Source of the DNA: Escherichia coli
GTDB taxonomy: Bacteria > Pseudomonadota > Gammaproteobacteria > Enterobacterales > Enterobacteriaceae
Length of the DNA stretch: 64,000 nt
Assembly (NCBI RefSeq): GCF_046105845.1
Contig: NZ_CP151004.1
Reading direction: 5' to 3' (one strand)
Program-made: the position numbers and the translations under genes
Part shown: piece by piece, positions 218-64,000 of the stretch
Layout: every line of letters starts with the position of its first letter
Numbering within the stretch: the first letter of the stretch is position 1
The notes under the pieces: generated by a model
Databases searched by the model: none
What the model was told of the DNA's origin: nothing
What the model saw: the letters and a program-made list of their open reading frames with translations, nothing else

Positions 218-3892
<3,675 letters not shown>

Positions 3893-4414: not shown

Positions 4415-5389
4415 ATGACAGACTTAATCCAACGCCCTCGTCGCCTGCGCAAATCTCCTGCGCTGCGCGCTATGTTTGAAGAGACAACACTTAGCCTTAA
4501 CGACCTGGTGTTGCCGATCTTTGTTGAAGAAGAAATTGACGACTACAAAGCCGTTGAAGCCATGCCAGGCGTGATGCGCATTCCAGAGAAACATCTGGCA
4601 CGCGAAATTGAACGCATCGCCAACGCCGGTATTCGTTCCGTGATGACTTTCGGCATCTCTCACCATACCGATGAAACCGGCAGCGACGCCTGGCGGGAAG
4701 ATGGACTGGTGGCGCGTATGTCGCGCATATGCAAGCAGACTGTGCCAGAAATGATCGTCATGTCAGACACTTGTTTCTGTGAATACACTTCTCACGGTCA
4801 CTGCGGTGTGCTGTGCGAGCATGGCGTCGACAACGACGCGACTCTGGAAAATTTAGGCAAGCAAGCCGTGGTTGCAGCTGCTGCAGGTGCAGACTTCATC
4901 GCCCCTTCCGCCGCGATGGACGGCCAGGTACAGGCGATTCGTCAGGCGCTGGACGCTGCGGGCTTTAAAGATACGGCGATTATGTCGTATTCGACCAAGT
5001 TCGCCTCTTCCTTTTATGGTCCGTTCCGTGAAGCTGCCGGAAGCGCATTAAAAGGCGACCGCAAAAGCTATCAGATGAACCCGATGAACCGCCGCGAAGC
5101 GATTCGTGAATCACTGCTGGATGAAGCCCAGGGCGCAGACTGCCTGATGGTTAAACCAGCTGGAGCGTACCTCGACATCGTGCGTGAGCTGCGTGAACGT
5201 ACTGAATTGCCGATTGGTGCGTATCAGGTGAGCGGTGAGTACGCGATGATTAAGTTCGCCGCGCTGGCGGGTGCTATAGATGAAGAGAAAGTCGTGCTCG
5301 AAAGCTTAGGTTCGATTAAGCGTGCGGGTGCGGATCTGATTTTCAGCTACTTTGCGCTGGATCTGGCTGAGAAGAAGATTCTGCGTTAA
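4415..5389 (+). CDS. hemB: Porphobilinogen synthase (delta-aminolevulinate dehydratase)
   Basis: Protein begins [28 protein letters not shown]; start trimmed from track ORF (4382) to the ATG at 4415 giving 324 aa. Confidence 0.93.
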
Positions 5390-5399
5390 TGATCATTAT

Positions 5400-5431
5400 G
5401 CCGGGTTATCCCAACCCGGCATTTCCTCTTC
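5400..5431. terminator. Bidirectional rho-independent terminator between convergent hemB and tauD
   Basis: GCCGGGTT-ATCCC-AACCCGGC followed by ATTTCCTCTTC on the + strand. Confidence 0.55.
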
Positions 5432-6281
5432 ACCCCGCCCGATAAAACGGTTTATCCCCAAGGATCGTCGCCCGATGCATAATCCGCCGCTGTGGCAGGT
5501 AATCCGCATTGGCATAGTGCTGAGTCACGCGATTATCCCAAATCGCAATATCATTCGGTTGCCAGCGCCAGCGCACCTGAAACTCCGGTTTGGTGATATG
5601 GGCAAACAAAAAACTTAACAAGGCTTCGCTCTCTTTCTCGCTCACATCAACAATTCGCGTAGTAAAGCCTTCATTCACAAACAGCGCCTGTTTACCGCTC
5701 ACCGGATGCGTTCGCACCACCGGATGTAGCAACGGCGGGTTTTTCGCGACCGCCTCGCGCCAGCGTTGATGTTCCTCCTCGGTTTTGCGGTATTTGTATT
5801 CCGGGAACGATTTACGGAAATCATGCTCCGCACGCAGCCCGCTCAGCAGCTGGCGGAAGGGAACAGAGAGCGCCTCATAGGCCGCAATACCGCTGGTCCA
5901 GAGCGTATCACCGCCGGTCGAAGGTAACTCTTTAGCTGCCAGAATCGCCCCTGCGGGTGGCGTTTCAATAAATGTCACATCGGTATGCCAGTTGTCGTTA
6001 TCTGGCGGATTATCGTTATGGGTATCCAGCACGATGATCTCGTCAACCCCTTCGGCATGAGGGTAAACAGGGTGAATATGCAGTTCGCCAAAACGCTGGG
6101 CCAGCGCGCGTTGCTGCAGCGGCGTAATGGCCTGTTCACGCAGAAACACCACCTGATGGCGCAGTACCGCATGGTAAAGCTGTTCAAACTGGTTATCACT
6201 TAACGGGCGCGTCAGGTCGGCACCCGTAATTTGTGCGCCAATATACGGCCCCAGCGGGGTAATGCTCAGACGTTCACTCAT
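5430..6281 (-). CDS. tauD: Taurine dioxygenase (alpha-ketoglutarate dependent)
   Basis: 283 aa, begins [23 protein letters not shown]; last gene of tauABCD. Confidence 0.95.
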
Positions 6282-7105
6282 TGTACTTCTCCATGCCAGG
6301 GCGTCAGGCGGCGCTGTAACGCGCGCAGACCCAGTTCTAAAAGAAAGGCGATAATCGCAATCACCGCGATCCCCGCCAGCACCACGTCAGTCGCGAGAAA
6401 TTCACCCGCTGACTGAACCATAAATCCTAAACCGCGCGTCGCGGCAATCAGCTCCGCCGCCACCAGCGTAGACCAGCCCACACCCAGACCAATACGTAAT
6501 CCGGTGAGGATTTCCGGCAGCGCGCCGGGCAAAATGACAAACCACAGCACCTGCGCACGGCTGGCACCCAGAGACTGGGCGGCACGAATGCGAACCTGCT
6601 GCGCGCTTTTCACCCCCGCCAGCGCCGACATCGCCACCGGTGCAAAAATCGCTAAATAGATCAGTAAGATCTTCGAGGTTTCACCAATACCAAACCAGAT
6701 CACCATCAGCGGCAAATACGCCAGCGGCGGCACCGGGCGATACAATTCAATTACCGGATCCAGAATGCCGCGCACCGTCGGGCTTAGTCCCATGGCGATC
6801 CCGACCGGAATGCCGATCAACACCGCCGCAAGTAGCGCCAGCATAATGCGCGTCAGGCTGGCTGCCAGATGCTGCCACAGGGTGGCGTCCATAAATCCCT
6901 GCGGCCCGGCAATGGTGAGCAGTTTTGCCAGTACCTGTTGCGGTGGCGGCAAAAACAGCGGGCTAATCAGGTGCAGCGCCGCGACTGCCCACCATACAGT
7001 GAGCAAAATCGCTAACGTGCCAATGCTTAAGGTCACCTGACGCGAGAGCGGCCAGCGCCATTTCAGCCGACGCGAATGCAGTTTTTCATTAATGAGCACA
7101 CTCAT
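6278..7105 (-). CDS. tauC: Taurine ABC transporter permease
   Basis: 275-aa polytopic membrane protein; start/stop overlaps with tauB and tauD. Confidence 0.93.
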
Positions 7106-11343: not shown

Positions 11344-11902
11344 TGTTAAAGAGAAAAACATTCAGATTGCAGACCAGGTAATTATTGATGAAACTGCAGG
11401 TGAAGTTGTTATCGGCGCGAATACCCGTATTTGTCATGGTGCCGTTATTCAGGGTCCGGTAGTGATTGGCGCAAACTGCCTGATAGGTAATTATGCGTTT
11501 ATTCGTCCTGGCACAATAATCAGCAATGGCGTAAAAATTGGTTTTGCCACCGAAATTAAAAATGCGGTTATTGAAGCGGAAGCAACGATTGGTCCGCAAT
11601 GCTTTATCGCCGACTCGGTAGTTGCAAACCAGGCATATTTGGGCGCACAAGTACGTACCAGTAATCATCGTCTGGATGAACAGCCCGTGTCTGTTAGAAC
11701 TCCAGAGGGAATTATCGCTACCGGATGCGATAAATTAGGTTGTTATATCGGGCAGCGTTCACGCCTTGGCGTACAAGTTATTATTTTGCCTGGGCGAATT
11801 ATTTCCCCGAACACGCAACTTGGCCCGCGCGTGATTGTAGAACGTAATTTACCTCCCGGAACTTATTCACTCCGACAAGAACTTATCCGTACAGGAGATT
11901 AA
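11192..11902 (+). CDS. yaiX: Hexapeptide-repeat (left-handed beta-helix) acyl/acetyltransferase, intact YaiX; start uncertain
   Basis: Repeating [LIV]-G-x-x-x-x hexapeptide pattern; no in-frame ATG/GTG/TTG downstream of the yaiP stop (11343), so the ORF must start at ATG 11192 or 11210, overlapping the yaiP 3' end out of frame. Confidence 0.6.
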   Translation: MPSGLFMDLLPFLLDANLSATNPPAIPHWWKRQPLIPNLLLQELKNYLKLNVKEKNIQIADQVIIDETAGEVVIGANTRICHGAVIQGPVVIGANCLIGNYAFIRPGTIISNGVKIGFATEIKNAVIEAEATIGPQCFIADSVVANQAYLGAQVRTSNHRLDEQPVSVRTPEGIIATGCDKLGCYIGQRSRLGVQVIILPGRIISPNTQLGPRVIVERNLPPGTYSLRQELIRTGD

Positions 11903-11903
11903 A

Positions 11904-12677
11904 ATGATAAAACGGACGTTATTAGCGGCGGTCATTTTTAGCGCATTGCCCGCTTATGCCGGGTTAACTTCCATTACCGCGGGCTACGATTTTACCGATT
12001 ATTCTGGCGATCATGGCAACCGTAATTTAGCGTATGCTGAACTGGTGGCGAAAGTTGAAAACGCAACGCTGCTTTTTAATCTTTCCCAGGGGCGTCGTGA
12101 TTATGAAACTGAACATTTCAATGCCACTCGCGGTCAGGGTGCGGTCTGGTATAAATGGAATAACTGGCTGACAACCCGAACGGGTATTGCCTTTGCGGAT
12201 AATACGCCGGTCTTTGCCCGCCAGGATTTTCGTCAGGATATTAACCTGGCACTGTTGCCAAAAACGCTTTTCACGACCGGTTATCGCTACACGAAATATT
12301 ACGATGATGTCGAAGTCGATGCCTGGCAAGGCGGCGTATCACTCTATACTGGCCCGGTGATCACCAGCTATCGCTATACCCATTATGACTCCAGCGATGC
12401 AGGTGGTAGTTACAGCAATATGATTTCCGTGCGTCTGAATGACCCGCGCGGCACTGGTTATACGCAACTATGGCTAAGCCGCGGAACAGGTGCTTACACC
12501 TATGACTGGACGCCAGAAACACGCTACGGCAGCATGAAGAGCGTCAGTTTGCAACGTATTCAACCGCTGACTGAGCAACTTAATCTCGGGCTGACGGCAG
12601 GTAAAGTGTGGTACGACACCCCAACCGATGATTATAACGGTCTGCAACTTGCAGCCCATCTGACCTGGAAATTCTGA
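11904..12677 (+). CDS. yaiO: Outer-membrane beta-barrel protein YaiO
   Basis: 257 aa; signal peptide MIKRTLLAAVIFSALPAYA; C-terminal ...LTWKF; GGAG RBS; starts 2 nt after the yaiX stop. Confidence 0.88.
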   Translation: MIKRTLLAAVIFSALPAYAGLTSITAGYDFTDYSGDHGNRNLAYAELVAKVENATLLFNLSQGRRDYETEHFNATRGQGAVWYKWNNWLTTRTGIAFADNTPVFARQDFRQDINLALLPKTLFTTGYRYTKYYDDVEVDAWQGGVSLYTGPVITSYRYTHYDSSDAGGSYSNMISVRLNDPRGTGYTQLWLSRGTGAYTYDWTPETRYGSMKSVSLQRIQPLTEQLNLGLTAGKVWYDTPTDDYNGLQLAAHLTWKF

Positions 12678-12685
12678 TTCCTTCT

Positions 12686-12707
12686 GCCGCCCGCTATCCG
12701 GGGCGGC
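12686..12707 (+). terminator. GC-rich hairpin downstream of yaiO (candidate terminator, no U-tract)
   Basis: GCCGCCC-loop-GGGCGGC immediately after the yaiO stop. Confidence 0.3.
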
Positions 12708-12787
12708 CTTCCCTGCCGATTAGCCCCACCCCCTTTCCTCTTTGTTTTCCGACCACATTCACCGGATAAATTTTATTCTCCAGTGTT

Positions 12788-12840
12788 ATATACTATAGGG
12801 GGGTATGTATTGACATATAGAATACCCCCCTATAGTATAT
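12788..12840 (+). promoter_or_regulatory. frmRAB promoter-operator: two 19-bp inverted arms with G6/C6 tracts (CsoR/RcnR-family FrmR site type) flanking a TTGACA -35
   Basis: ATATACTATAGGGGGGTAT (12788-12806) and ATACCCCCCTATAGTATAT (12822-12840) are exact reverse complements; TTGACA at 12810-12815; frmR ATG at 12865. Confidence 0.7.
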
Positions 12841-12864
12841 TGCATGCAGATGATGAGGTGCGAA

Positions 12865-13140
12865 ATGCCCAGTACTCCGGAAGAGAAGAAAAAGGTCCTT
12901 ACTCGAGTTCGTCGTATTCGGGGGCAAATTGATGCTCTGGAACGGTCGCTGGAGGGTGATGCCGAATGCCGTGCCATACTCCAACAGATCGCTGCCGTTC
13001 GGGGCGCGGCTAACGGGCTGATGGCAGAAGTGCTTGAAAGCCATATCCGGGAAACGTTTGACCGAAATGACTGCTACAGCCGCGAAGTCAGCCAATCCGT
13101 TGACGACACTATTGAACTGGTTCGTGCCTATCTTAAATAG
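12865..13140 (+). CDS. frmR: Formaldehyde-responsive repressor FrmR (CsoR/RcnR family)
   Basis: 91 aa from ATG at 12865 ([31 protein letters not shown]...) preceded by GAGG; track ORF starts 21 nt earlier. Confidence 0.93.
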
Positions 13141-47514: not shown

Positions 47515-48564
47515 TCAGTCTGTTAGTGTGCGATTATCGATAACAAAACGATATTTCACATCACCACGCAGCATTCGCTCATAGGCTTCATTAATTTGAT
47601 CGGCCCGAATCATCTCTATATCAGCCACGATGCCATGTTCGGCGCAAAAATCGAGCATCTCCTGAGTTTCTGGAATGCCGCCAATCATAGAGCCGGCTAT
47701 CGCGCGGCGTTTCATGATCAGGTTGAAAACTTCCGGCGATTTATGCGGTGTCGCAGGCGCACCAACCAGCGTCATGGTGCCATCGCGCTTCAGCAAGGTG
47801 GTAAAATCGTCGAGATTATGTGGCGCAGCTACTGTATTCAAAATGAAATCGAAACTCTTCAGATGAGCCGCCATCTCATCGGCATTGCGTGAGTTAACAA
47901 CTTCATCGGCCCCCAGGGCTTTTGCCGCTTCGCGTTTTGACTCCGAAGTGGTAAATGCCACCACATGTGCCCCCATCGCGTGGGCCAGCTTAATCCCCAT
48001 ATGTCCCAGACCGCCGATGCCAACCACGCCCACTTTTTTACCCGGCCCGGCCTGCCAGTGACGTAGCGGCGAGTATGTGGTGATCCCTGCACACAATAAA
48101 GGAGCCACCGCCGCCAGCTGCTCTTGCGGGTGACGAATACGCAGAACATATCGCTCATGAACGACGATCTGTTGTGAGTAGCCGCCCAGCGTATGGCCCG
48201 GTTCGTCCGGCGTCGGCGAGTTATAGGTGCCGGTCATGTGATCACAGTAGTTTTCCAGCCCGTCTTCACACTCTTCGCAATGTTTACAACTGTCGACAAT
48301 GCAGCCGACACCGACCAGATCGCCCGTCGCATGTTTTTCTACCTGATCACCAACGGCTACCACACGCCCTACAATTTCATGGCCCGGCACGCAGGGATAA
48401 ACCGTCCCCGCCCACTCGGAACGGACCTGGTGGATATCGGAATGGCAGACGCCACAGTAAGCGATTTCAATTTTGACATCATGCGGTCCCGGTTCACGCC
48501 TGGTAATATCCATCGGTTCCAGCGGTTGTTTAGCGGAATATGCACCAACAGCTTTGATCTTCAT
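47515..48564 (-). CDS. yahK: NADPH-dependent aldehyde reductase (Zn-dependent MDR alcohol dehydrogenase)
   Basis: 349 aa; Zn ligand motif GHEIVGRV and Rossmann GVVGIGGLGHMG; AGGAG RBS. Confidence 0.93.
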   Translation of the reverse strand: MKIKAVGAYSAKQPLEPMDITRREPGPHDVKIEIAYCGVCHSDIHQVRSEWAGTVYPCVPGHEIVGRVVAVGDQVEKHATGDLVGVGCIVDSCKHCEECEDGLENYCDHMTGTYNSPTPDEPGHTLGGYSQQIVVHERYVLRIRHPQEQLAAVAPLLCAGITTYSPLRHWQAGPGKKVGVVGIGGLGHMGIKLAHAMGAHVVAFTTSESKREAAKALGADEVVNSRNADEMAAHLKSFDFILNTVAAPHNLDDFTTLLKRDGTMTLVGAPATPHKSPEVFNLIMKRRAIAGSMIGGIPETQEMLDFCAEHGIVADIEMIRADQINEAYERMLRGDVKYRFVIDNRTLTD

Positions 48565-48650
48565 TGTGTTTACTCCTGATTAGCTATGTGTATTTGGCGA
48601 TGCCTGATATGTCATCGCGGCAAAACGCGTCCATTGAATATAGCCAATAT

Positions 48651-49607
48651 TTAAACCACCCGATCCAGCCCCAACATGCCGCGAGCCTGAATGAAACAGA
48701 GCAGCAACGTTCCCCATAAGGCCATCGTCAGGTAGGGACTTATACCGAGAATATTGAAGCCGCTTTCAATAATTTGCAGAAGAAACAGCGCCAGCACCAT
48801 ACCAATTATCCGCCCGCTGCCGCCGTCCGGATTAACCCCGCCGAGTACTGCCGCGAGGATTGACACCAGCAAGTACGATTCGCCATAAGAGGCCTTAGCC
48901 GAGTTGAGTTTCGACATCATCAAAAATGCCGCTACCGCACAAAGCAAGGCGGAAATGACATACACCCATATCAGCACCCGACGAGTGTTAATACCGGAGT
49001 AAAGTGTTGCTCGTTCGTTAGAACCAATCAGATAAATGGATTTACCGAGCGGCGTTTTCTCCAGCAATATCCACAGCCCCAGCGCCACTGCGGCAAACAA
49101 CCACATCGGTAGCGGAATACCGAACCATTGCGCATGATTCAACCACAGCACCCATGAGGGATAATTGGCAATGGCGCTACCACCTGTCACCAGAATATTT
49201 ATCCCTTTGAGCAACGTCATCATCCCAAGCGTTGCAAGAATTGGCGACACTCGAATACCAGCAATCAATACGCCGTTACATAAACCGATTATCACCGCCG
49301 CGCCAGCGCCCGCCAGTAACGTAGCGACAACCGTAGCAATACCCGGTGGATACTGAGTCGCCACCCACGCCATCACCAGTGAACAGGCGTTAGCAGTGGC
49401 AATAATTGACAAGTTAATGCCACCGCAAAGCATGGTCACCGCCATAGCCAACGCCAGAATGCCCAGCACGGGCATTTGCGAAGCGACGGACTGGAAATTA
49501 CTTATCGACCAGAAAATCTCCGGCATAGTAATGCTGAACGCGGCAACCGTTAGCACCAGCAGGCCGATCAAGTAAAACTCAACGTTATTACGCCACGATT
49601 TTTTCAT
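48651..49607 (-). CDS. Sugar-type ABC transporter permease (second of two)
   Basis: Polytopic membrane protein; ATG 49607 overlaps the stop of the upstream permease (ATGA). Confidence 0.8.
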   Translation of the reverse strand: MKKSWRNNVEFYLIGLLVLTVAAFSITMPEIFWSISNFQSVASQMPVLGILALAMAVTMLCGGINLSIIATANACSLVMAWVATQYPPGIATVVATLLAGAGAAVIIGLCNGVLIAGIRVSPILATLGMMTLLKGINILVTGGSAIANYPSWVLWLNHAQWFGIPLPMWLFAAVALGLWILLEKTPLGKSIYLIGSNERATLYSGINTRRVLIWVYVISALLCAVAAFLMMSKLNSAKASYGESYLLVSILAAVLGGVNPDGGSGRIIGMVLALFLLQIIESGFNILGISPYLTMALWGTLLLCFIQARGMLGLDRVV

Positions 49608-50575
49608 AGCAGACTCCGGTTCTGATGCTGACTCCACGCCGTGGCGCTAATGCTGGCAACGATGATGATGCCTGTGATCAATGTTTGCCAGTAAGACGAG
49701 ACTCCCAATAAATTTAGCCCGTTTTGCATCACTGCCAACAACACCACGCCGAGCAAAGTACCGGTTAACGTGCCGCGCCCGCCGAGCAAACTAGTGCCGC
49801 CAAGCACCACCGCAGCCAGTACTGTCAGCTCATAACCCAGAAGAGAATCGGGGGCGACAGTCATCACCGTCCACGACTGCACTACACCCGCAGCGCCAGA
49901 CATCAATCCCATATAGCCATAGACGAAAAGTTGCAGTTTCAGCACGCTAAAGCCGATGCGACTGGCTGATTCACGATTCCCGCCAAGGGCATAAATTTTG
50001 CGCCCTACACTGGTGAAATTCATGATAAACGCTGTCAGCAGCACCACCGTAATCATGGCGATCAGCGGCAGACCAAGGCCATAGTCATAGCCGTCAGCAT
50101 CGGTGTACTTGAACAACATTATCCCCTGCTCAAACCACGGCGGAAAGTCGTACAGCCACACACCTTTACTCAACCATAACAGCAGGCCATAGAAAATATT
50201 CAGCGTCGAAATGGTGATGATGATAGACGGCACCCGTAGGCGATTAACCAGTAAGGCGTTTATTAAGCCAAGTAAAATGCCGATGCCGCCCGCCAGGGCA
50301 AACGCGACAGCAAAGTTGCCACCAATTTTTTGCAGCAACAGCACCATGCCGTATTGCGCAATGATGGTCATTGCCGGAAACGAAATATCAATCCCACCGG
50401 AAATTAACACCACAAACAAACCACAGGCGAGAATAGTCAACATGGCATAGTTATTGGCGAGATCGTACAAATTACCGAATGTCAGAAACTCGTCGCTGCG
50501 CCAGGCAAGGCCGACAAACAGCCCCACAATCAGTAATGCCAGCCAGAATTCATGGCGTTTTTTCAGTTCAGCCAT
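49604..50575 (-). CDS. Sugar-type ABC transporter permease (first of two)
   Basis: 323-aa polytopic membrane protein; start overlaps the ATPase stop. Confidence 0.8.
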   Translation of the reverse strand: MAELKKRHEFWLALLIVGLFVGLAWRSDEFLTFGNLYDLANNYAMLTILACGLFVVLISGGIDISFPAMTIIAQYGMVLLLQKIGGNFAVAFALAGGIGILLGLINALLVNRLRVPSIIITISTLNIFYGLLLWLSKGVWLYDFPPWFEQGIMLFKYTDADGYDYGLGLPLIAMITVVLLTAFIMNFTSVGRKIYALGGNRESASRIGFSVLKLQLFVYGYMGLMSGAAGVVQSWTVMTVAPDSLLGYELTVLAAVVLGGTSLLGGRGTLTGTLLGVVLLAVMQNGLNLLGVSSYWQTLITGIIIVASISATAWSQHQNRSLL

Positions 50576-52052
50576 TTACCACCTCCGCAATTCTGGCCTG
50601 AGAACTGCTGTCAGGCAGGAAGCTATGGGTGATCTGACCTTTTTGCATTACCAAAATCCGGTGGCTTTGATACCACGCTTCTTCAATTTCATCGCAGATC
50701 ATCAATACCGCAATGCCATGAGCCGCCAGATCGCTGATAATGCCGTATATTCCTGCTTTGTTGGCGATATCAACACCGACTGTCGGGCTATCGAGAATCA
50801 ACAGTCGTGGCCCAATCGCCAGCCATTTGGCGATCGATACTCGCTGCGCGTTACCCCCGGAAAGCGTATTCACCGGGAGATGTGGGTCAGAGACTTTGAT
50901 GGTCAATGCCTTGATTAGCCTGTCCACCAGGTCACGCACTTTAGCTTCACTCAGAAAGCCGAAGCGATCTTTTACCTTGTGAAAAACAGTGCTAATGATG
51001 TTGTCTTCAATAGATTGCGCCATCACCAAACCGCGCGACATGCGATCTTCCGAAACATAACCAATACCGTGGCGGATGGCGTCCTGGTTACTATGCAGTG
51101 TAACCGGCTGACCGTTGATGAGGATCTCACCAGCATCCGGTCGGGTCATACCAAACAGACTCAGACATAATTCCGTGCGCCCCGCACCAAGCAGGCCAAC
51201 AATCGACACCACTTCGCCCGCTTCCACCCGCAAGTTAATATTTTGATATTCCCCCTGACGACTTAAATTACGCACCTCCAGCACCCGGGTGCTGGATTTT
51301 CCCTGCCACAACTCTCGCACCTGATATTCAAACTCCTGGCCGGTCATCAGGAAACCGAGTTGTTTTGTGGTCATCTCTGCAGCCGGAAAGGTCCCGACCA
51401 GCTCACCATCTTTCAACACTGAAATACGGTCGGAAACTTCCATCACTTCTTCCAGACGATGACTGACGAAGACCACGCAGATCCCGCGTTCCCGCAATTG
51501 ATGCACCACCTGTAATAACCCTTGCACTTCCTGATGGGTCAGCGAAGCGGTGGGTTCATCCATCACGATCAACCGTGCGTCCTGCGCCAGTGCACGGCAA
51601 ATTGCCACCAGCTGACAGCGGGCAATTGAAAGCTCAGAAACGAGCGTATCCAGTGGCAATGTGACGTTAATACTGGTCATTGCCGCCTGCGCCACCTCAC
51701 GCAGACGACGGCGGTTAACAAACAGACCGTGGTGATAGTGATTCACGGCGATATTCTCCCAGACACTCAGGTTAGGAAATAAAGAGAGGTCCTGATAAAT
51801 CACCTGAATCCCCTGCGCCACCGAAGCGGCGGGTGTCAGCTTTGACCAGTTTTTCCCACCAAGCGTAATTTCCGCCCCCTCATCCGGGCGATAAACACCG
51901 GACATAATTTTAATCAACGTCGATTTACCACAGCCGTTTTGCCCGGCAAGGCAGTGCACCTCACCCGACATAAAGTCGAGAGAAACATCGCGCAGCGCTC
52001 GCGTGGCATGAAACGTTTTGTTGATATGACGAAGGGAAAGGAAGGTTTCCAT
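50568..52052 (-). CDS. Sugar-type ABC transporter ATP-binding protein with duplicated nucleotide-binding domains
   Basis: Walker A GQNGCGKST in the first half and LSGGNAQR signature in the second; two-NBD architecture typical of ribose/AI-2-type importers; ATG 52052 preferred over the TTG at 52067. Confidence 0.85.
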   Translation of the reverse strand: METFLSLRHINKTFHATRALRDVSLDFMSGEVHCLAGQNGCGKSTLIKIMSGVYRPDEGAEITLGGKNWSKLTPAASVAQGIQVIYQDLSLFPNLSVWENIAVNHYHHGLFVNRRRLREVAQAAMTSINVTLPLDTLVSELSIARCQLVAICRALAQDARLIVMDEPTASLTHQEVQGLLQVVHQLRERGICVVFVSHRLEEVMEVSDRISVLKDGELVGTFPAAEMTTKQLGFLMTGQEFEYQVRELWQGKSSTRVLEVRNLSRQGEYQNINLRVEAGEVVSIVGLLGAGRTELCLSLFGMTRPDAGEILINGQPVTLHSNQDAIRHGIGYVSEDRMSRGLVMAQSIEDNIISTVFHKVKDRFGFLSEAKVRDLVDRLIKALTIKVSDPHLPVNTLSGGNAQRVSIAKWLAIGPRLLILDSPTVGVDIANKAGIYGIISDLAAHGIAVLMICDEIEEAWYQSHRILVMQKGQITHSFLPDSSSQARIAEVVNG

Positions 52053-52074
52053 AGCATCCCCTGGCAATAAGAAT

Positions 52075-52090
52075 CGGGGCTTTCGCCCCG
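52075..52090 (-). other. Perfect hairpin between the binding-protein and ATPase genes
   Basis: CGGGGC-TTTC-GCCCCG. Confidence 0.4.
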
Positions 52091-52100
52091 AAGAAATGGA

Positions 52101-53087
52101 TTAATAAAGTGAGTCGATATTGTCTTTGTTGACCAGTAATACCTTATGGAAACGGATAATTCGCTTATCCATATCTACGTCGGCCTTACCGAGATTCTCC
52201 ATTTCTAATCCAGGTTTGATCTCTTCACCCTTCAGCAACGTGCTGGCGACGGCCGCGAGTGCGTAACCTGCAGAGGCCGGATCGTAAGTAATCCCTTCAG
52301 TGATATCACCACTTTTAATCAGTGATGCCGCCTGTGAAGGGATCATCATGCCATAGACTGCGACTTTATTTTTCGCCCGTTTCTCTTTCACTGCACGTCC
52401 CGCGCCAATCGGACCGTTTGAACCAAAGGAGACAACCGCTTTCAAGTCAGGATAGGTTTTCATCAGGTCCAGTGTGGTTCGACGTGAGTCATCCACACTC
52501 TCGGCAACCGGCATGCGGCGGGTAACTTCATGCATATCCGGGTAATGCTCTTTCTGGTATTTCACCAGCAAGTCAGCCCATAAGTTATGCTGCGGCACGG
52601 TCAAACTACCCACGTAAATCACATAGCCGCCCTTGCCACCCATGCGTTTCGCCATATGCTCAACATATTCAGCGGCAAATTTTTCGTTATCAATGATTTC
52701 GATATCCCAGTTAGCACTTGGCTGACCGGGGGATTCGTTGGTCAGAACCACAATTCCGGCATCTCGCGCTTTTTTGAATACCGGTTCCAGCACGTTGGCA
52801 TCGTTTGGCACAATTGTAATTGCATTAACCTTACGGGCGATTAAATCCTCAATGATTTTAACCTGTTGCGGAGCATCAGTACTTGAAGGCCCCACCTGTG
52901 ACGCATTAACACCAAAGGCTTTACCCGCCTCGACCACACCTTCGCCCATGCGATTAAACCAAGGCATACCATCGACTTTAGAGATATTCACCACGACTTT
53001 TTCCGCTGCCTGGAGCGGCGCAGAAATTAGCGCAGCGCCTAATAACAGCGAAGACACCATATTGATAACAAAACGTTTATTCATCAT
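52101..53087 (-). CDS. Periplasmic substrate-binding protein (type 1 sugar-binding fold, RbsB/LsrB-like)
   Basis: 328 aa; signal peptide ending LQAAEK; GAGG RBS; C-terminal ...KVLLVNKDNIDSLY resembles the LsrB C-terminus as I recall it. Confidence 0.8.
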   Translation of the reverse strand: MMNKRFVINMVSSLLLGAALISAPLQAAEKVVVNISKVDGMPWFNRMGEGVVEAGKAFGVNASQVGPSSTDAPQQVKIIEDLIARKVNAITIVPNDANVLEPVFKKARDAGIVVLTNESPGQPSANWDIEIIDNEKFAAEYVEHMAKRMGGKGGYVIYVGSLTVPQHNLWADLLVKYQKEHYPDMHEVTRRMPVAESVDDSRRTTLDLMKTYPDLKAVVSFGSNGPIGAGRAVKEKRAKNKVAVYGMMIPSQAASLIKSGDITEGITYDPASAGYALAAVASTLLKGEEIKPGLEMENLGKADVDMDKRIIRFHKVLLVNKDNIDSLY

Positions 53088-53244
53088 TTCAGCCTCATTG
53101 CAGGGTAGTCAGGAAGTGTTCGCCCAAATTAGCGCGCTGGAGAGAATAAGAATTTTCGAATATTTTTATGCAGAATAAACAGCCCTATTTCAGGCAGCTA
53201 TTAAAAATTTGGTTATAAATATGGACAAAACGGGCAGAAACAAT

Positions 53245-53266
53245 AAGTGTGACAATCATCACGTAA
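53245..53266 (-). promoter_or_regulatory. Candidate CRP site upstream of the ABC transporter operon
   Basis: AAGTGTGACAATCATCACGTAA (TGTGA-N6-TCACG), about 170 bp upstream of the binding-protein ATG. Confidence 0.5.
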
Positions 53267-53337
53267 AAAATAGCAAAATAAACAAAATTAGCGATACTTT
53301 ATGTTTGTGAGCTTATTTCGCGTAGAAAAATAGTTAT

Positions 53338-53748
53338 CTACACAACGTCAATAAGGGCATATTCTTCAAAGATAACGTCCATTTCGGGTGAATAGTATCC
53401 TTCTGCCTGGAAAAAACGACGGTGTTCATTACGCCAATATTCAAGACTGAGGTCACCTTCACCTTCCTTACGGGCAAGCTCCGCGGTGACATCAGAAAAG
53501 CGCAGTAAATGCAGGCCAATCACTCTGATAACACAGACAGGCTCACCACGGCTATTTTCTACAATCTTATACTCACCAATCATCGGAAATGCGTTGTCTT
53601 CAATACATCCCGCCAGCGAACCACAGGAAGCTGTTTTAACACCAGTCGCAATCAACGTTGCGAGGTGATCGGCCAACGCTGCTGAATCGCCAAAAGTACA
53701 AAAGGAAGCATGGGGATATTTTTGTGAGATTTTTTCTTTTATGGTCAT
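53338..53748 (-). CDS. Small ASCH-like domain protein (putative)
   Basis: 136 aa from ATG 53748 (MTIKEKISQKYP...); a G-x-K-T motif (GVKTASCG) and overall size resemble ASCH/YqfB-type proteins; weak RBS. Confidence 0.4.
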   Translation of the reverse strand: MTIKEKISQKYPHASFCTFGDSAALADHLATLIATGVKTASCGSLAGCIEDNAFPMIGEYKIVENSRGEPVCVIRVIGLHLLRFSDVTAELARKEGEGDLSLEYWRNEHRRFFQAEGYYSPEMDVIFEEYALIDVV

Positions 53749-54047
53749 GAGAATATTTTCGCGATTACGGAAAAACAAATCACATCTTAATTACTGTTGA
53801 TAACCATCAGCAAGAGTATCATTGGTTTTTCGATACTGAATCTTTTTTATCCGAAGCAGGTCACATTTATGGCCTGATAAATACCTTTGTTAAAACTCAC
53901 TTTTGTGTATTTCTCTCAAATAATCCCCTGGAAATTATGCCGGGAGATTATAAAGTTCAGGATCATTCATTAGCAAACCATTGCTGCCCCACTCCCTGGG
54001 GCTTTAAATCTCTTACGATTCACCATTGCAGGCGTTTCAAATGCGTA

Positions 54048-55430
54048 TCAACCTGCCACACTCCCCCACACCAGTTGTCCTTTATGGAACGTTGCCGTTC
54101 TCGGCGAGATACGCGCCACCGCCTCGGCGGAACAGGAGGCGTCCACCAGCACAAAACTGGCGTCATCCTGCGCTTTGGGCCACACGCGCTCGCCTTTTTC
54201 ATTCAGCGGCAATACATCGCCAGTGGCTAAAAACAGCGAACGGGACAAATTCTGTTCGTTAGGGCGAATATAGAGCTGCGCGTACAGATTGGCTTTTTCC
54301 AGCATGTCGCCCAGGCCGTAAGGTGACCAGTGGTCGATAACGCTGTCAGTTCCTGTCATGACTTTTACGCCTTTGTCGTGCAGTTGTTTGAGCGGCATAT
54401 GCAGCGTGCCAATCGGCACCGTCGAAGCGATAGAAATTTGCTGCGCCGCCATCCGGTGCGCCAGTTCATCTACCTGTTGTTCGTTGAGCGTTGCCAGCGC
54501 GAAGGCGTGGCTGATGGTCAGCTTGCCCTTCAGCTGTGGCGTTTTCTCTACCGTTTCAACCATATAGTTGATGGCTGCCACGCCTGCCGGAGTGGTTTCG
54601 TGCAGGTGAATATCGACGCCTTTGTCGTAGTCCAGCGCAATCTGGAACATGGTGTCGAGGGATTTTTCCATCGCGCCATCAACACTGGTTGGGTCCAGCC
54701 CGCCGACGTAATGCGCCCCCGCCTGCATCGCTTCGCGCATTAAGGGTTCTGATTTCGACAGCAGCAAACCGTGCTGCGGGAAGGCGACAATTTCACACTC
54801 GAAGCCCGCCTGACGTCGCGCCAGCACCGCCTGCAAATTTTGCAGATTTTTCAGGCCGGAAACCGGTTCGATATTGCAGTGGCTGCGGGCAATGGTAGTG
54901 CCTTTCGACTGCAATAAATCGATCAGTTTTTCCGCTCGTTCCTGAGTGTACGGTTGCAGCTCCGGCAGCATTTTCTGCTCGAGTTTGATCATGTCCTGGA
55001 TGGTGGTGCCTGCCGGGCGATTGAGCGAGCGCCACGGCCCGCCGTAAAAGGTTTTGTCGAGATGAATATGCATGTCACGGGTGGTGGGCAGCATCAGCTT
55101 ACCGCCAGCGTCATAGTGCGGCAGCGTGGCGTCCGGATGCTGCTTGTTCTCGCGCAGGGCAACAATTTTGCCGTTCTGAATCTCTACGGTCTGGTGCGCC
55201 GTGCGGGTCTGTACCGCCACGCCATTTTCGTAGTCAAAACCGGTTTCCAGCAGCACGTTGTCGAGATAGTAGTGCGGGTCAGTGATTTTCATGGTGTTAT
55301 TCGCGTCGCAGTGGGTTGTGCCAGAGACTGCCGCATGGGCGAGCGGCACAGAGGTACCAAACAGCGCGGCGGCGGTGACCATCTTACCGCTCTGGCTCAG
55401 AAACTCACGGCGGCTATTGTTTTTTTTCAT
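54048..55430 (-). CDS. yahJ: Tat-exported amidohydrolase-superfamily deaminase-like protein
   Basis: 460 aa; twin-arginine signal MKKNNSRREFLSQSGKMVTAAALFGTSVPLAHA; metal-dependent amidohydrolase HxH motif (MHIHLD). Confidence 0.9.
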   Translation of the reverse strand: MKKNNSRREFLSQSGKMVTAAALFGTSVPLAHAAVSGTTHCDANNTMKITDPHYYLDNVLLETGFDYENGVAVQTRTAHQTVEIQNGKIVALRENKQHPDATLPHYDAGGKLMLPTTRDMHIHLDKTFYGGPWRSLNRPAGTTIQDMIKLEQKMLPELQPYTQERAEKLIDLLQSKGTTIARSHCNIEPVSGLKNLQNLQAVLARRQAGFECEIVAFPQHGLLLSKSEPLMREAMQAGAHYVGGLDPTSVDGAMEKSLDTMFQIALDYDKGVDIHLHETTPAGVAAINYMVETVEKTPQLKGKLTISHAFALATLNEQQVDELAHRMAAQQISIASTVPIGTLHMPLKQLHDKGVKVMTGTDSVIDHWSPYGLGDMLEKANLYAQLYIRPNEQNLSRSLFLATGDVLPLNEKGERVWPKAQDDASFVLVDASCSAEAVARISPRTATFHKGQLVWGSVAG

Positions 55431-61794: not shown

Positions 61795-62727
61795 ATGAAC
61801 TCAATTTTTACCGAAGAGAATCTGTTGGCATTTACTACCGCTGCGCGTTTTGGCAGCTTCAGTAAAGCCGCAGAAGAGTTGGGTTTAACCACTTCCGCCA
61901 TTAGCTACACCATCAAGCGAATGGAAACAGGGCTGGATGTGGTGCTGTTCACTCGCAGTACCCGAAGCATTGAGTTAACGGAGTCCGGGCGTTATTTTTT
62001 CCGCAAAGCTACCGACCTGCTGAATGATTTTCACGCCATCAAACGCAGCATCGATACTATTTCGCAGGGTATAGAAGCACGGGTGCGCATTTGTATTAAC
62101 CAACTGCTTTATACGCCCAAACACACCGCACGCTTATTACAGGTACTGAAAAAGCAGTTTCCAACCTGCCAGATTACCGTGACGACCGAAGTGTATAACG
62201 GCGTCTGGGATGCGATTATTAATAATCAGGCGAATATTGCTATCGGCGCGCCCGACACACTGCTGGACGGCGGCGGCATTGATTACACGGAGATTGGCGC
62301 AATTCGCTGGGCTTTTGCTATCGCCCCGGATCACCCATTAGCCTTTGTGCCGGAGCCGATCGCCGAAAGCCAACTGCGTCTCTATCCTAATATCATGGTG
62401 GAGGACACCGCGCATACGATTAATAAAAAAGTGGGCTGGTTGCTGCATGGGCAGGAGTCGATTCTGGTGCCAGATTTCAACACCAAATGTCAGTGCCAGA
62501 TTTTAGGTGAAGGAATTGGTTTTTTGCCGGATTACATGGTCCGTGAGGCGATGGCGCAATCCCTGCTGGTTACCCGACAAATCCATAATCCGCGCCAGGA
62601 TTCACGCATGTTACTCGCAACTCAGCATTCTGCTACGGGTCAGGTGACGCAGTGGATTAAAAAACAATTTTCGCCAAATGGCATATTAACGGGGATCTAT
62701 CAGGATTTACTGCATCGGGAGAATTAA
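61795..62727 (+). CDS. yahB: LysR-family transcriptional regulator
   Basis: 310 aa; N-terminal HTH (FSKAAEELGLTTSAISYTIKRME). Confidence 0.9.
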   Translation: MNSIFTEENLLAFTTAARFGSFSKAAEELGLTTSAISYTIKRMETGLDVVLFTRSTRSIELTESGRYFFRKATDLLNDFHAIKRSIDTISQGIEARVRICINQLLYTPKHTARLLQVLKKQFPTCQITVTTEVYNGVWDAIINNQANIAIGAPDTLLDGGGIDYTEIGAIRWAFAIAPDHPLAFVPEPIAESQLRLYPNIMVEDTAHTINKKVGWLLHGQESILVPDFNTKCQCQILGEGIGFLPDYMVREAMAQSLLVTRQIHNPRQDSRMLLATQHSATGQVTQWIKKQFSPNGILTGIYQDLLHREN

Positions 62728-62768
62728 TCGCTGCCAACCTCCCGATGCGCTGTGAATAGCGGTTTACA

Positions 62769-63857
62769 TCAACCACCTGCTTTCATTACCCATTCAGAGA
62801 TAAATTTATTACCCGGTACTGGCGGAGAGTACAAATAGCCCTGCAAAAAGTGAACGCCTTTGCCGATCATTAAATCCGCCTGCTCCTGGGTTTCTACCCC
62901 TTCCGCCACGATACTCAGACCAGGCTTACGCGCCAGTTCGACAATATTGTCCACAATATGACCGGATATTTCGTCCACGCTCGCCATTTGCACAAATGAC
63001 TTATCGATCTTAATAAAATCGACCGGAAACGCCTGCAGATAACGATAGGTCGCATAACCCGTACCAAAGTCATCCAGCGCAAAGGTAATGTTGTGCTGAT
63101 GAAGGCTGTCAAATATCGCTCTGGCTTCTGGCGTTACCGGAATAGGGTTACGTTCCGTTAGCTCGAGAACCAGTTTGATTTTATCGTTACCTAATTTCTT
63201 AACCAGGTTCAGACACTCTTTTTCAAATCCCGCAGCCAAAAAACAACCCGCCGAGACGTTGATGCCAATATGGAAATTATCCGGCAGCAAATGTTTTACC
63301 GGCATCAGAATATCCGCAGTCTGTTTCATCAACTGGCGAGTCATTATGACGATAAGACCAGATGACTCCGCCAGAGGAATAAACTGATCCGGTGGGATAA
63401 TTCCCGTTTGTGGATGTTCCCAGCGGACAAGCACCTCACAGCCCGTCAGTACCCCAGTCTGCGCGCAGAAAACCGGTTGGATCCACGGTTTAAACTCATG
63501 GTTTTCCAACGCCAGACTGATGGCTTCAGGCGTGACGATATGGTGATAGTGATTATCATTAATATATTTGTGACTATTATTACCCGTGGCGGATATGATC
63601 TCCGGATTGTACTGAAAGAAAATATCCCGCCAGAAAGTAATATCACTCTGAATCCCCAGTTTCTCAAAGAGCTGTTTCTTTTGATGTGAAATGGTCTTTG
63701 CACTGCGATTTCTGTACTGTGATATTTCTGTTACAGACATTCCCTGCATCAGCAGCTTGAGTAGCAGTCGTTCTTTCTCGGATACGCTACCAGGCAATGA
63801 CAAATGAACCGTTGTACCGAACTCTTGCAGAAAAACACGAAAATCACATGAATTCAT
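62769..63857 (-). CDS. pdeL: c-di-GMP phosphodiesterase PdeL (LuxR-type HTH plus EAL domain)
   Basis: 362 aa from ATG 63857 (MNSCDFRVFLQEFGTT...); EAL motif (VLELTERNP). Confidence 0.9.
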   Translation of the reverse strand: MNSCDFRVFLQEFGTTVHLSLPGSVSEKERLLLKLLMQGMSVTEISQYRNRSAKTISHQKKQLFEKLGIQSDITFWRDIFFQYNPEIISATGNNSHKYINDNHYHHIVTPEAISLALENHEFKPWIQPVFCAQTGVLTGCEVLVRWEHPQTGIIPPDQFIPLAESSGLIVIMTRQLMKQTADILMPVKHLLPDNFHIGINVSAGCFLAAGFEKECLNLVKKLGNDKIKLVLELTERNPIPVTPEARAIFDSLHQHNITFALDDFGTGYATYRYLQAFPVDFIKIDKSFVQMASVDEISGHIVDNIVELARKPGLSIVAEGVETQEQADLMIGKGVHFLQGYLYSPPVPGNKFISEWVMKAGG

Positions 63858-64000
63858 GAACACACCTTTTATCTTTTATCGCTGTTCAGTATGAGTGATT
63901 ACCTGTGGATTCCTGAGCACACATAAGGGGTAACCATAAACATCAGCGATGCCATACGCATAACATCCCACATCACTATCAAAAAGATTATCTTTACCTC

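Follow-up and report, generated by a model that had tools for sequence, protein, structure and literature searches.

The ABC importer operon between yahK and yahJ of an Escherichia coli strain is very likely Aau, with a predicted AraC/CRP promoter and a deletion scar at its place in K-12

What is carried by the four-gene ATP-binding cassette (ABC) importer that stands between yahK and yahJ in some strains of Escherichia coli, what switches it on, and how did it come to occupy a place that holds no transporter in K-12? The question is raised by a stretch of 64,000 nucleotides from contig NZ_CP151004.1 (the window, in which positions are counted below unless another sequence is named). Its minus strand carries an operon with the gene order solute-binding protein (SBP), ATPase, permease, permease. 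The original prediction saw in it a strain-variable importer of the sugar type, inserted at this place downstream of a CRP site and with an unknown substrate. According to our analysis, the operon is very likely Aau (AauABCD), a CUT2-family ABC importer known from O-island 17 of enterohaemorrhagic E. coli (EHEC). Aau stands for accessory L-arabinose uptake and comprises Z0415-Z0419 (Cottam et al., Nat Commun 2024, PMC11127945); a second paper gives the structure of its binding protein, PDB 9I1M (Cottam et al., Nat Commun 2025, PMC12307932). The transporter is already known and well characterised. What we add, a promoter map, a deletion scar and a conserved AraC/CRP signature, is incremental.

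The identification starts from the binding protein. AauA (aauA, 52101-53087, minus strand) has 328 residues, with a signal peptide that ends in ...PLQA and is followed by AEK. It is identical at 326 of 328 residues (99.4%, E = 1e-213) to the AauA of EHEC in PDB 9I1M, and about 93% identical to PDB 3D02, a structural-genomics entry from Klebsiella. The EHEC crystal holds alpha-D-ribulose, contacted by K37, W43, E118, H167, E196 and S223 (PMC12307932), and all six residues are present here with the same numbering. The rest of the operon consists of aauB (50568-52052, minus strand), encoding an ATPase of 494 residues with two fused nucleotide-binding domains, and of the permease genes aauC (49604-50575, minus strand; 323 residues) and aauD (48651-49607, minus strand; 318 residues counted from ATG). 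Compared with O157:H7 SS17, AauB is identical at 489 of 494 residues, AauC at 320 of 323 and AauD at 316 of 318; over the four proteins the identity is 98.9-99.4%, with 2-5 substitutions in each.

The surroundings agree with the proteins. The window is collinear with O157:H7 SS17 over 12.4 kb at 97.4% nucleotide identity, where the operon likewise lies with yahK on one side and the ASCH gene and yahJ on the other, and the nearest complete genome is 98.8% identical to the window across the locus. Genes, gene order, position and ligand contacts are those of the EHEC O157:H7 system, and the promoter block from I1 (see below) to the start codon is nearly the same, so that only allelic differences separate the two. 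One of them concerns the ATPase, which is full-length in this non-O157 host strain, whereas in EDL933 and TUV93-0 a premature stop splits it into Z0416 and Z0417 (PMC11127945). The original prediction was right about the coordinates and order of the four co-directional open reading frames. It had also stated that near-identity to a characterised transporter would take its novelty away, and this is what we found: with 99.4% identity between the SBP and the crystallised AauA of a published locus, neither the claim of novelty nor that of an unknown substrate holds.

The published work on EHEC tells what such an operon does. By isothermal titration calorimetry, AauA binds D-ribulose with a Kd of 1.98 uM and L-arabinose with a Kd of 598 uM (PMC12307932). 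D-ribulose does not induce the operon and EHEC does not grow on D-ribulose alone; when L-arabinose is present, D-ribulose is imported and then phosphorylated by AraB (PMC12307932). A promoter fusion of about 300 bp is induced by L-arabinose only; an araC mutant loses this induction and regains it when complemented (PMC11127945). In the streptomycin-treated mouse gut, the aau deletion mutant is outcompeted (PMC11127945). If the near-identical system of the window's strain works in the same way, AauA would capture alpha-D-ribulofuranose and deliver it to the AauC/AauD permease pair, with AauB powering the import. Since the E. coli locus contains no dedicated D-ribulokinase, the L-ribulokinase AraB would phosphorylate the imported D-ribulose, which would then enter the pentose phosphate pathway.

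One alternative is the reading behind the 2024 name, namely that Aau is primarily an extra L-arabinose scavenger and that D-ribulose is a side activity. It fits the induction by L-arabinose only, through AraC, and the finding that overexpression of Aau partly rescues the growth of an araE mutant (PMC11127945). AraC-type sites are moreover found at the operon in most genera, and the orthologous operon adjoins araC and araB/araA in Providencia, Budviciaceae, Chelonobacter and Testudinibacter. We nevertheless consider it unlikely, given the two Kd values, the D-ribulose in the crystal and the lack of a growth defect of the aau deletion on L-arabinose (PMC11127945). The six D-ribulose contacts are also identical in the Rbl-like SBP of Citrobacter amalonaticus (L063), whose locus corresponds to the D-ribulose-specific Rbl system described for C. 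rodentium (PMC12307932). The Klebsiella and Mannheimia orthologues of AauA have these six residues too.

Rbl is, after EHEC Aau itself, a close relative with a known ligand. This system of Citrobacter rodentium (rblABCD with the D-ribulokinase RblK) has the same CUT2 architecture, and it responds to D-ribulose while Aau responds to L-arabinose (PMC12307932). In the Rbl-like loci that we collected (L061-L082), the SBP is 58-64% identical to AauA and has identical D-ribulose contact residues. Unlike aau, Rbl-type loci include a gene for an FGGY pentulose kinase (TIGR01315; the one in L063 scores 695 bits), and they also differ from aau in their promoters.

How is the operon controlled? The original prediction had named CRP, and the CRP-like site lies exactly where it was placed (53248-53263, minus strand; CGTGATGATTGTCACA on the operon strand, TGTGACAATCATCACG on the plus strand). 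It matches 9 of the 10 core bases, and its centre is about 90 nt upstream of the predicted transcription start. Absent from that prediction was the main regulator, AraC with L-arabinose, which is known from the published work. Between the CRP-like site and the predicted -10 hexamer we found a candidate AraC-type direct repeat (53199-53236, minus strand), made of an I1-like half-site TGCCCGTTTTGTCCATA (53236-53220), the spacer TTTA and an I2-like half-site TAACCAAATTTTTAATA (53215-53199). The -10 hexamer as read from the sequence, TATTCT (53172-53177, minus strand), is 21 nt downstream of I2. The predicted transcription start near 53165 would give a 5' untranslated region of about 78 nt, with a Shine-Dalgarno motif GAGG 8 nt before the ATG.

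This arrangement resembles that of the arabinose promoter ParaBAD, in which I1 and I2 are the established names of the elements through which AraC acts (Schleif). Read on the operon strand, the order in Paau is CRP-11nt-I1-4nt-I2-21nt-TATTCT, and in K-12 ParaBAD it is CRP-13nt-TAGCATTTTTATCCATA (araI1)-AGAT-TAGCGGATCCTACCTGA (araI2)-20nt-TACTGT. Both promoters share the 17+4+17 layout, and their spacings agree within 2 bp. As at araBAD, and also at the AraC/CRP promoters of araFGH and araE, a CRP site is followed by 17-bp repeats set 4 bp apart that reach the -35 region, and by a weak -10. In its sequence layout, Paau thus has the 17-bp half-sites, the distance of 21 bp from centre to centre and the CRP site immediately upstream that define a ParaBAD-type promoter. 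Its half-sites in E. coli are more degenerate than those of ParaBAD (TGCC...TCCATA / TAAC...TAATA). The orthologous promoter of Klebsiella (TAGTATTATTATCCATA-TTTA-TAGCTGAATATTACCTG) comes closer still to ParaBAD; the -10 TATTCT is kept there and reads TACTCT in Franconibacter. A CRP-like site is found at the equivalent position in Klebsiella, Franconibacter, Mangrovibacter, Symbiopectobacterium, Yersinia and Pasteurellaceae.

The combination was scored as a composite of a CRP site, in which up to 2 mismatches were allowed, and the pattern TAGC-N7-TCCATA-N4-TAGC, in which up to 3 were allowed, the two being separated by 8-15 nt. A binding protein with 68% or more identity to AauA defined the AauA clade, which has 60 loci; 47 of these carry the composite, and its gap is always 11 or 12 nt. 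It is present in none of 20 Rbl-like loci and in none of 12000 dinucleotide shuffles. The loci of the clade span Enterobacteriaceae, Yersiniaceae, Budviciaceae, Aeromonas and Pasteurellaceae, and the promoter sequence around it is unconserved between these groups. A similar picture is obtained at shorter range. Within Escherichia the CRP half-sites are constant and the N6 spacer between them varies. The stretch from I1 to the ATG is nearly invariant in the four E. coli-level sequences that were aligned, with one substitution in O157. In an Escherichia lineage of about 90% identity, the same stretch shows two substitutions and one 2-nt indel, with coding DNA 91-93% identical, and the AraC-type repeat is unchanged.

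We therefore predict that Paau is a direct AraC/CRP co-activated promoter of the ParaBAD build, a reading that agrees with the published araC dependence. It is a prediction because neither paper on aau (PMC11127945, PMC12307932) mentions CRP, cAMP or an AraC binding site for this operon. In such a promoter, the I1-I2 repeat (53236-53199), which overlaps the -35 region, would be occupied by AraC, and the site 11 nt upstream of it (53263-53248) by CRP-cAMP; the operon would fire only with L-arabinose present and glucose scarce. The aau promoter was not called in a generic sigma-70 scan, which is what a poor -35 and dependence on an activator would lead one to expect.

Besides this silence of the literature, several points weigh against our account. 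The AraC site of E. coli is a poorer match than those of Klebsiella or Pasteurellaceae, as its I1 begins with TGCC instead of TAGC and its I2 is weak (TAAC...TAATA). The dependence of aau on AraC could in principle be indirect. The scored loci are phylogenetically related, so that 47 of 60 overstates the number of independent observations. The function proposed for the strain of the window is carried over from 99%-identical proteins. Finally, the CRP pattern taken alone has little force, since four sites of equal quality, with at most one mismatch, are found in the 64-kb window, where 1.9 are expected.

This last point raises the possibility that the CRP-like site matches by chance and does nothing for regulation, so that AraC alone matters. 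The strong induction of aau in glucose-containing MEM-HEPES, in two papers that never invoke CRP (PMC11127945, PMC12307932), would also be easier to understand in this way. We consider a chance match improbable, because it would leave unexplained why, within Escherichia, the N6 spacer has changed and the half-sites have not, why a CRP-like site recurs 11-12 nt upstream of I1 in most of the orthologous loci, over several families, and why the spacing agrees with the CRP-AraC arrangement at ParaBAD. It is thus the position of the site and its conservation across genera, and not the pattern statistics, that make it credible, and in this context the CRP site is probably functional, as the original prediction had supposed.

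The gene neighbourhoods of the orthologues point in the same direction as the direct AraC/CRP reading. Many Pasteurellaceae have the order araC-aauABCD, and Chelonobacter and Testudinibacter have araC-aauABCD-araB. In Providencia, aauABCD is followed by araC, araB and araA, and in Budviciaceae araB, an araFGH-like transporter and araC precede aauABCD. The neighbouring regulator is a genuine AraC by family score in Mannheimia, where it passes the NCBIfam AraC equivalog with 384 bits against a cut-off of 208. To judge from this adjacency to araC, seen in Pasteurellaceae, Budviciaceae and Providencia, the tie between aau and AraC would be ancestral and not a co-option specific to EHEC.

Most Pasteurellaceae have in addition a conserved gene for an FGGY kinase of 531 residues after the last permease gene (11350-12945 of locus L050, from Mannheimia haemolytica; also in L041, L046, L048, L051, L052, L056, L059 and L060). 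For this kinase, the PDB yielded no relative at 1e-10, BLASTP gave no match with AraB or the Rbl-type pentulose kinase, and the match to XylB is weak. It could be a third type of ribulokinase.

Was the operon inserted between yahK and yahJ, as the original prediction put it? Its presence is certainly variable, and the locus is dimorphic in E. coli: where it is missing in the genomes examined (K-12-like strains and Nissle 1917), a single common deletion scar stands in its place. The full locus is found in 2207 of 5426 complete E. coli genomes (about 41%), and carriage has been reported to be concentrated in phylogroups B1 and E (PMC11127945). In K-12 MG1655, yahJ (b0324) and yahK (b0325) are adjacent, with a spacer of 376 bp and no transporter; the absence from K-12 that had been claimed is correct, and the same four genes are not found there. 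This spacer is not an untouched site. When it was aligned to the window by BLASTN (MG1655 342507-342884), it resolved into ordered fragments of the locus joined by filler. It starts with the region downstream of yahJ (window 54155-53985), followed by 23 nt of filler. Next come 70 nt that correspond to window 53385-53316 and comprise the final 48 nt of the ASCH gene with a further 22 nt past its end. A filler of 63 nt follows, after which the sequence continues from window position 48722 onward, through the final 72 nt of aauD into the yahK leader. What the scar allele lacks is thus 48723-53315 (4593 bp), replaced by 63 nt of unrelated filler, and 53386-53984, replaced by 23 nt. The ASCH gene was lost in the same scar, and the remnant of aauD is annotated by RefSeq in K-12 as a truncated pseudogene. 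Nissle 1917, which belongs to phylogroup B2, agrees with MG1655 in both breakpoints and filler.

Since the scar keeps ordered pieces of aauD and of the ASCH gene, identical in Nissle 1917, the empty allele of K-12 arose by deletion. The simplest account is that the locus was present at the same position in the Escherichia ancestor and that one deletion allele is now found in many A and B2 strains. As for the fillers, neither the 23 nt nor the 63 nt gave a significant match in the island or elsewhere in the window. The idea that the 63-nt filler is a diverged copy of the aau promoter was rejected, as its alignment score of 18 is not significant against shuffles (mean 15.1, maximum 25).

The opposite view, in which the locus is a recent horizontally acquired insert and the K-12 arrangement the ancestral empty site, has some observations in its favour. 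It covers the insertion of the original prediction and also the two papers on aau, which speak of a horizontally acquired O-island. K-12 lacks the locus, as do most strains of phylogroups A and B2. The locus is patchy across Enterobacterales (the 80 best genome hits include none from Salmonella, E. fergusonii or E. albertii), and the SBPs of Klebsiella, Franconibacter and Mangrovibacter are unusually close (90-92%). A recent insertion is nonetheless quite improbable, because an empty site that had never been touched could not contain fragments of aauD and the ASCH gene in order, and the scar is the same in phylogroups A and B2. Insertion as an island would be marked by an intact empty site together with mobility genes, repeats or atypical composition, and these marks are missing: no mobility genes, integrase, insertion sequences, repeats or tRNA were seen at the borders of the locus, and the G+C content of the operon (0.49-0.53) is similar to that of its flanks and typical of E. 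coli. The divergence of aau also tracks that of its neighbour. Against O157, aau is 97.6-98.9% and yahK 97.8% identical, and against the Escherichia lineage of about 90% identity (locus L031, where aau also lies beside yahK) the values are 91-93% and 88.6%. An older horizontal transfer into the Escherichia ancestor is possible.

The L031 sequence, labelled E. coli SCPM-O-B-8794, has a rearrangement of its own. In positions 5343-7000 of that locus, the promoter side of aau abuts the match to window 62669-63982 (pdeL/yahB). The yahB-yahJ block (window about 53.4-62.7 kb) is absent, and aau and yahK are kept.

The family placement of the four proteins agrees with the identification as Aau. AauA is a Pfam Peripla_BP_4 protein (PF13407, 5.6e-63). 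AauB matches over its full length the NCBIfam models of AraG, YtfR, XylG and RbsA, and AauC and AauD match those of RbsC, AraH and LsrD, in every case under the equivalog cut-offs. A Peripla_BP_4 binding protein, a fused two-domain ATPase and permeases of the RbsC/AraH type make up the CUT2 architecture, and thereby the original assignment to the sugar-type ABC importers is borne out. RhaS, LsrB, AlsB, RbsB, XylF and MglB were each rejected as identities of the SBP, with NCBIfam scores far under the curated cut-offs, which bears out the earlier exclusion of rbs, lsr, ara, xyl, mgl, als and ytf. The nearest named SBP families in NCBIfam belong to the rhamnose importer RhaSTPQ and to LsrACDB. 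Both share with Aau the fold class and the CUT2 type, and both differ from it in gene order and neighbours; AauA scores 137 for RhaS, where the cut-off is 342.

LsrACDB deserves mention for the RefSeq/PGAP name of the SBP, "autoinducer 2 ABC transporter substrate-binding protein", carried in every annotated E. coli genome seen. Six conserved residues that bind autoinducer-2 (AI-2) are said to have been made the criterion of the LsrB family by Pereira et al. in 2009. In K-12 LsrB, where we checked them, these residues are K35, D116, D166, Q167, P220 and A222. The corresponding residues of AauA are K, E, Q, H, F and S, so that one of six is kept and five differ. The reading as an LsrB-type AI-2 importer, which besides the name has only the LsrB structures among the distant PDB relatives of AauA (E about 1e-21 to 1e-24) to recommend it, is effectively refuted by these positions, by an LsrB equivalog score of 111 bits against a cut-off of 384, by 29% identity to K-12 LsrB, by an SBP gene that comes first, unlike the lsrACDB order, by neighbours that, compared with the K-12 lsr locus, are yahK, the ASCH gene and yahJ instead of lsrK, lsrR, lsrF or lsrG, and by the experimental determination of D-ribulose as the ligand (PMC12307932). 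As AauA fails every test of LsrB membership that was made and its ligand has been determined, the RefSeq name (e.g. WP_038430809.1, WP_001042105.1) is misleading.

Some features of the operon remain to be described. The original prediction had seen ATGA-type overlaps between consecutive genes. This is true of aauC and aauD, which overlap by ATGA (4 nt), and in an extended form of aauB and aauC, which overlap by 8 nt (ATGGCTGA), but not of aauA and aauB, which are 48 nt apart. Two starts differ from those of the program-made open reading frames: that of aauB is an ATG, in agreement with RefSeq, where the program begins at TTG (52067), and for aauD the program's frame, of the GVG type, begins further upstream, at GTG (49637).

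The spacer between aauA and aauB contains a GC-rich hairpin, TCGGGGCGAAAGCCCCGA followed by a T-rich tail (52074-52091, minus strand), which is a terminator-like match. We compared the spacers of loci L004-L006, L010, L012, L024, L031, L045, L050 and L064, and in every genus examined a stable hairpin stands straight after the aauA stop, with stem sequences that are unrelated. This points to a conserved structural role, which may be attenuation or mRNA stabilisation favouring the binding protein. Acting as an attenuator or stabiliser within the operon, the hairpin would probably leave AauA in excess over the membrane complex.

As the original prediction stated, yahK (47515-48564) and yahJ (54048-55430) flank the locus. 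A fifth gene, absent from that prediction, stands between the operon and yahJ. It encodes an ASCH-domain protein (53338-53748, minus strand; annotated by RefSeq in O157:H7 SS17 and in strain 19KM1831), identical to that of O157:H7 SS17 at 134 of 136 residues, and belongs to the O-island 17 region without being a part of the transporter. The generic sigma-70 scan gave this gene a good site of its own, TTGCTA-18-TATAAT at 53976-53947.

Two further observations concern related sequences. A contig of 4748 bp deposited as "MAG: Bacteroidales bacterium" (SFEK01000152.1, our locus L003; MAG, metagenome-assembled genome) contains the complete aau operon, and its nucleotide identity to window 48600-53347 is 98.8%. 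The contig almost certainly comes from E. coli and reached the Bacteroidales assembly through a binning error. Elsewhere in the window, positions 2231-3809, in the region of the autotransporter gene ehaB, have no alignment to the otherwise collinear strain 19KM1831, and the segments that flank them are 95.7-96.6% identical to that strain, against 98.6% in the rest of the window.

What do these results mean for Aau? Three lines bear on its history: the composite promoter occurs from Escherichia and Klebsiella to Yersinia, Aeromonas and Pasteurellaceae, the operon adjoins araC in several groups, and K-12 and B2 strains share a single deletion. For these reasons we lean, with some reserve, towards the view that Aau has long belonged, under direct control, to the AraC/CRP regulon of Gammaproteobacteria and is not an island acquired by EHEC that hijacked AraC. 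A search of the literature, of which our coverage is incomplete, found no previous comparative account that places this transporter in the AraC regulon; one may exist elsewhere, for example in regulon databases. The promoter map, with its AraC I1-I2 and CRP sites and its predicted start, is an addition to the published work. If our reading of the Pasteurellaceae loci is true, araC-aauABCD with the FGGY kinase would be a self-contained, AraC-controlled pathway for a pentulose, perhaps D-ribulose.

In summary, the importer of the window is very likely one that, according to the published work, makes EHEC and many other E. coli fitter in the gut through the use of D-ribulose together with L-arabinose. 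The loss in K-12 by deletion shifts its framing, from cargo of a pathogenicity island to an ancestral member of a regulon that has been kept by phylogroups B1, E and D.

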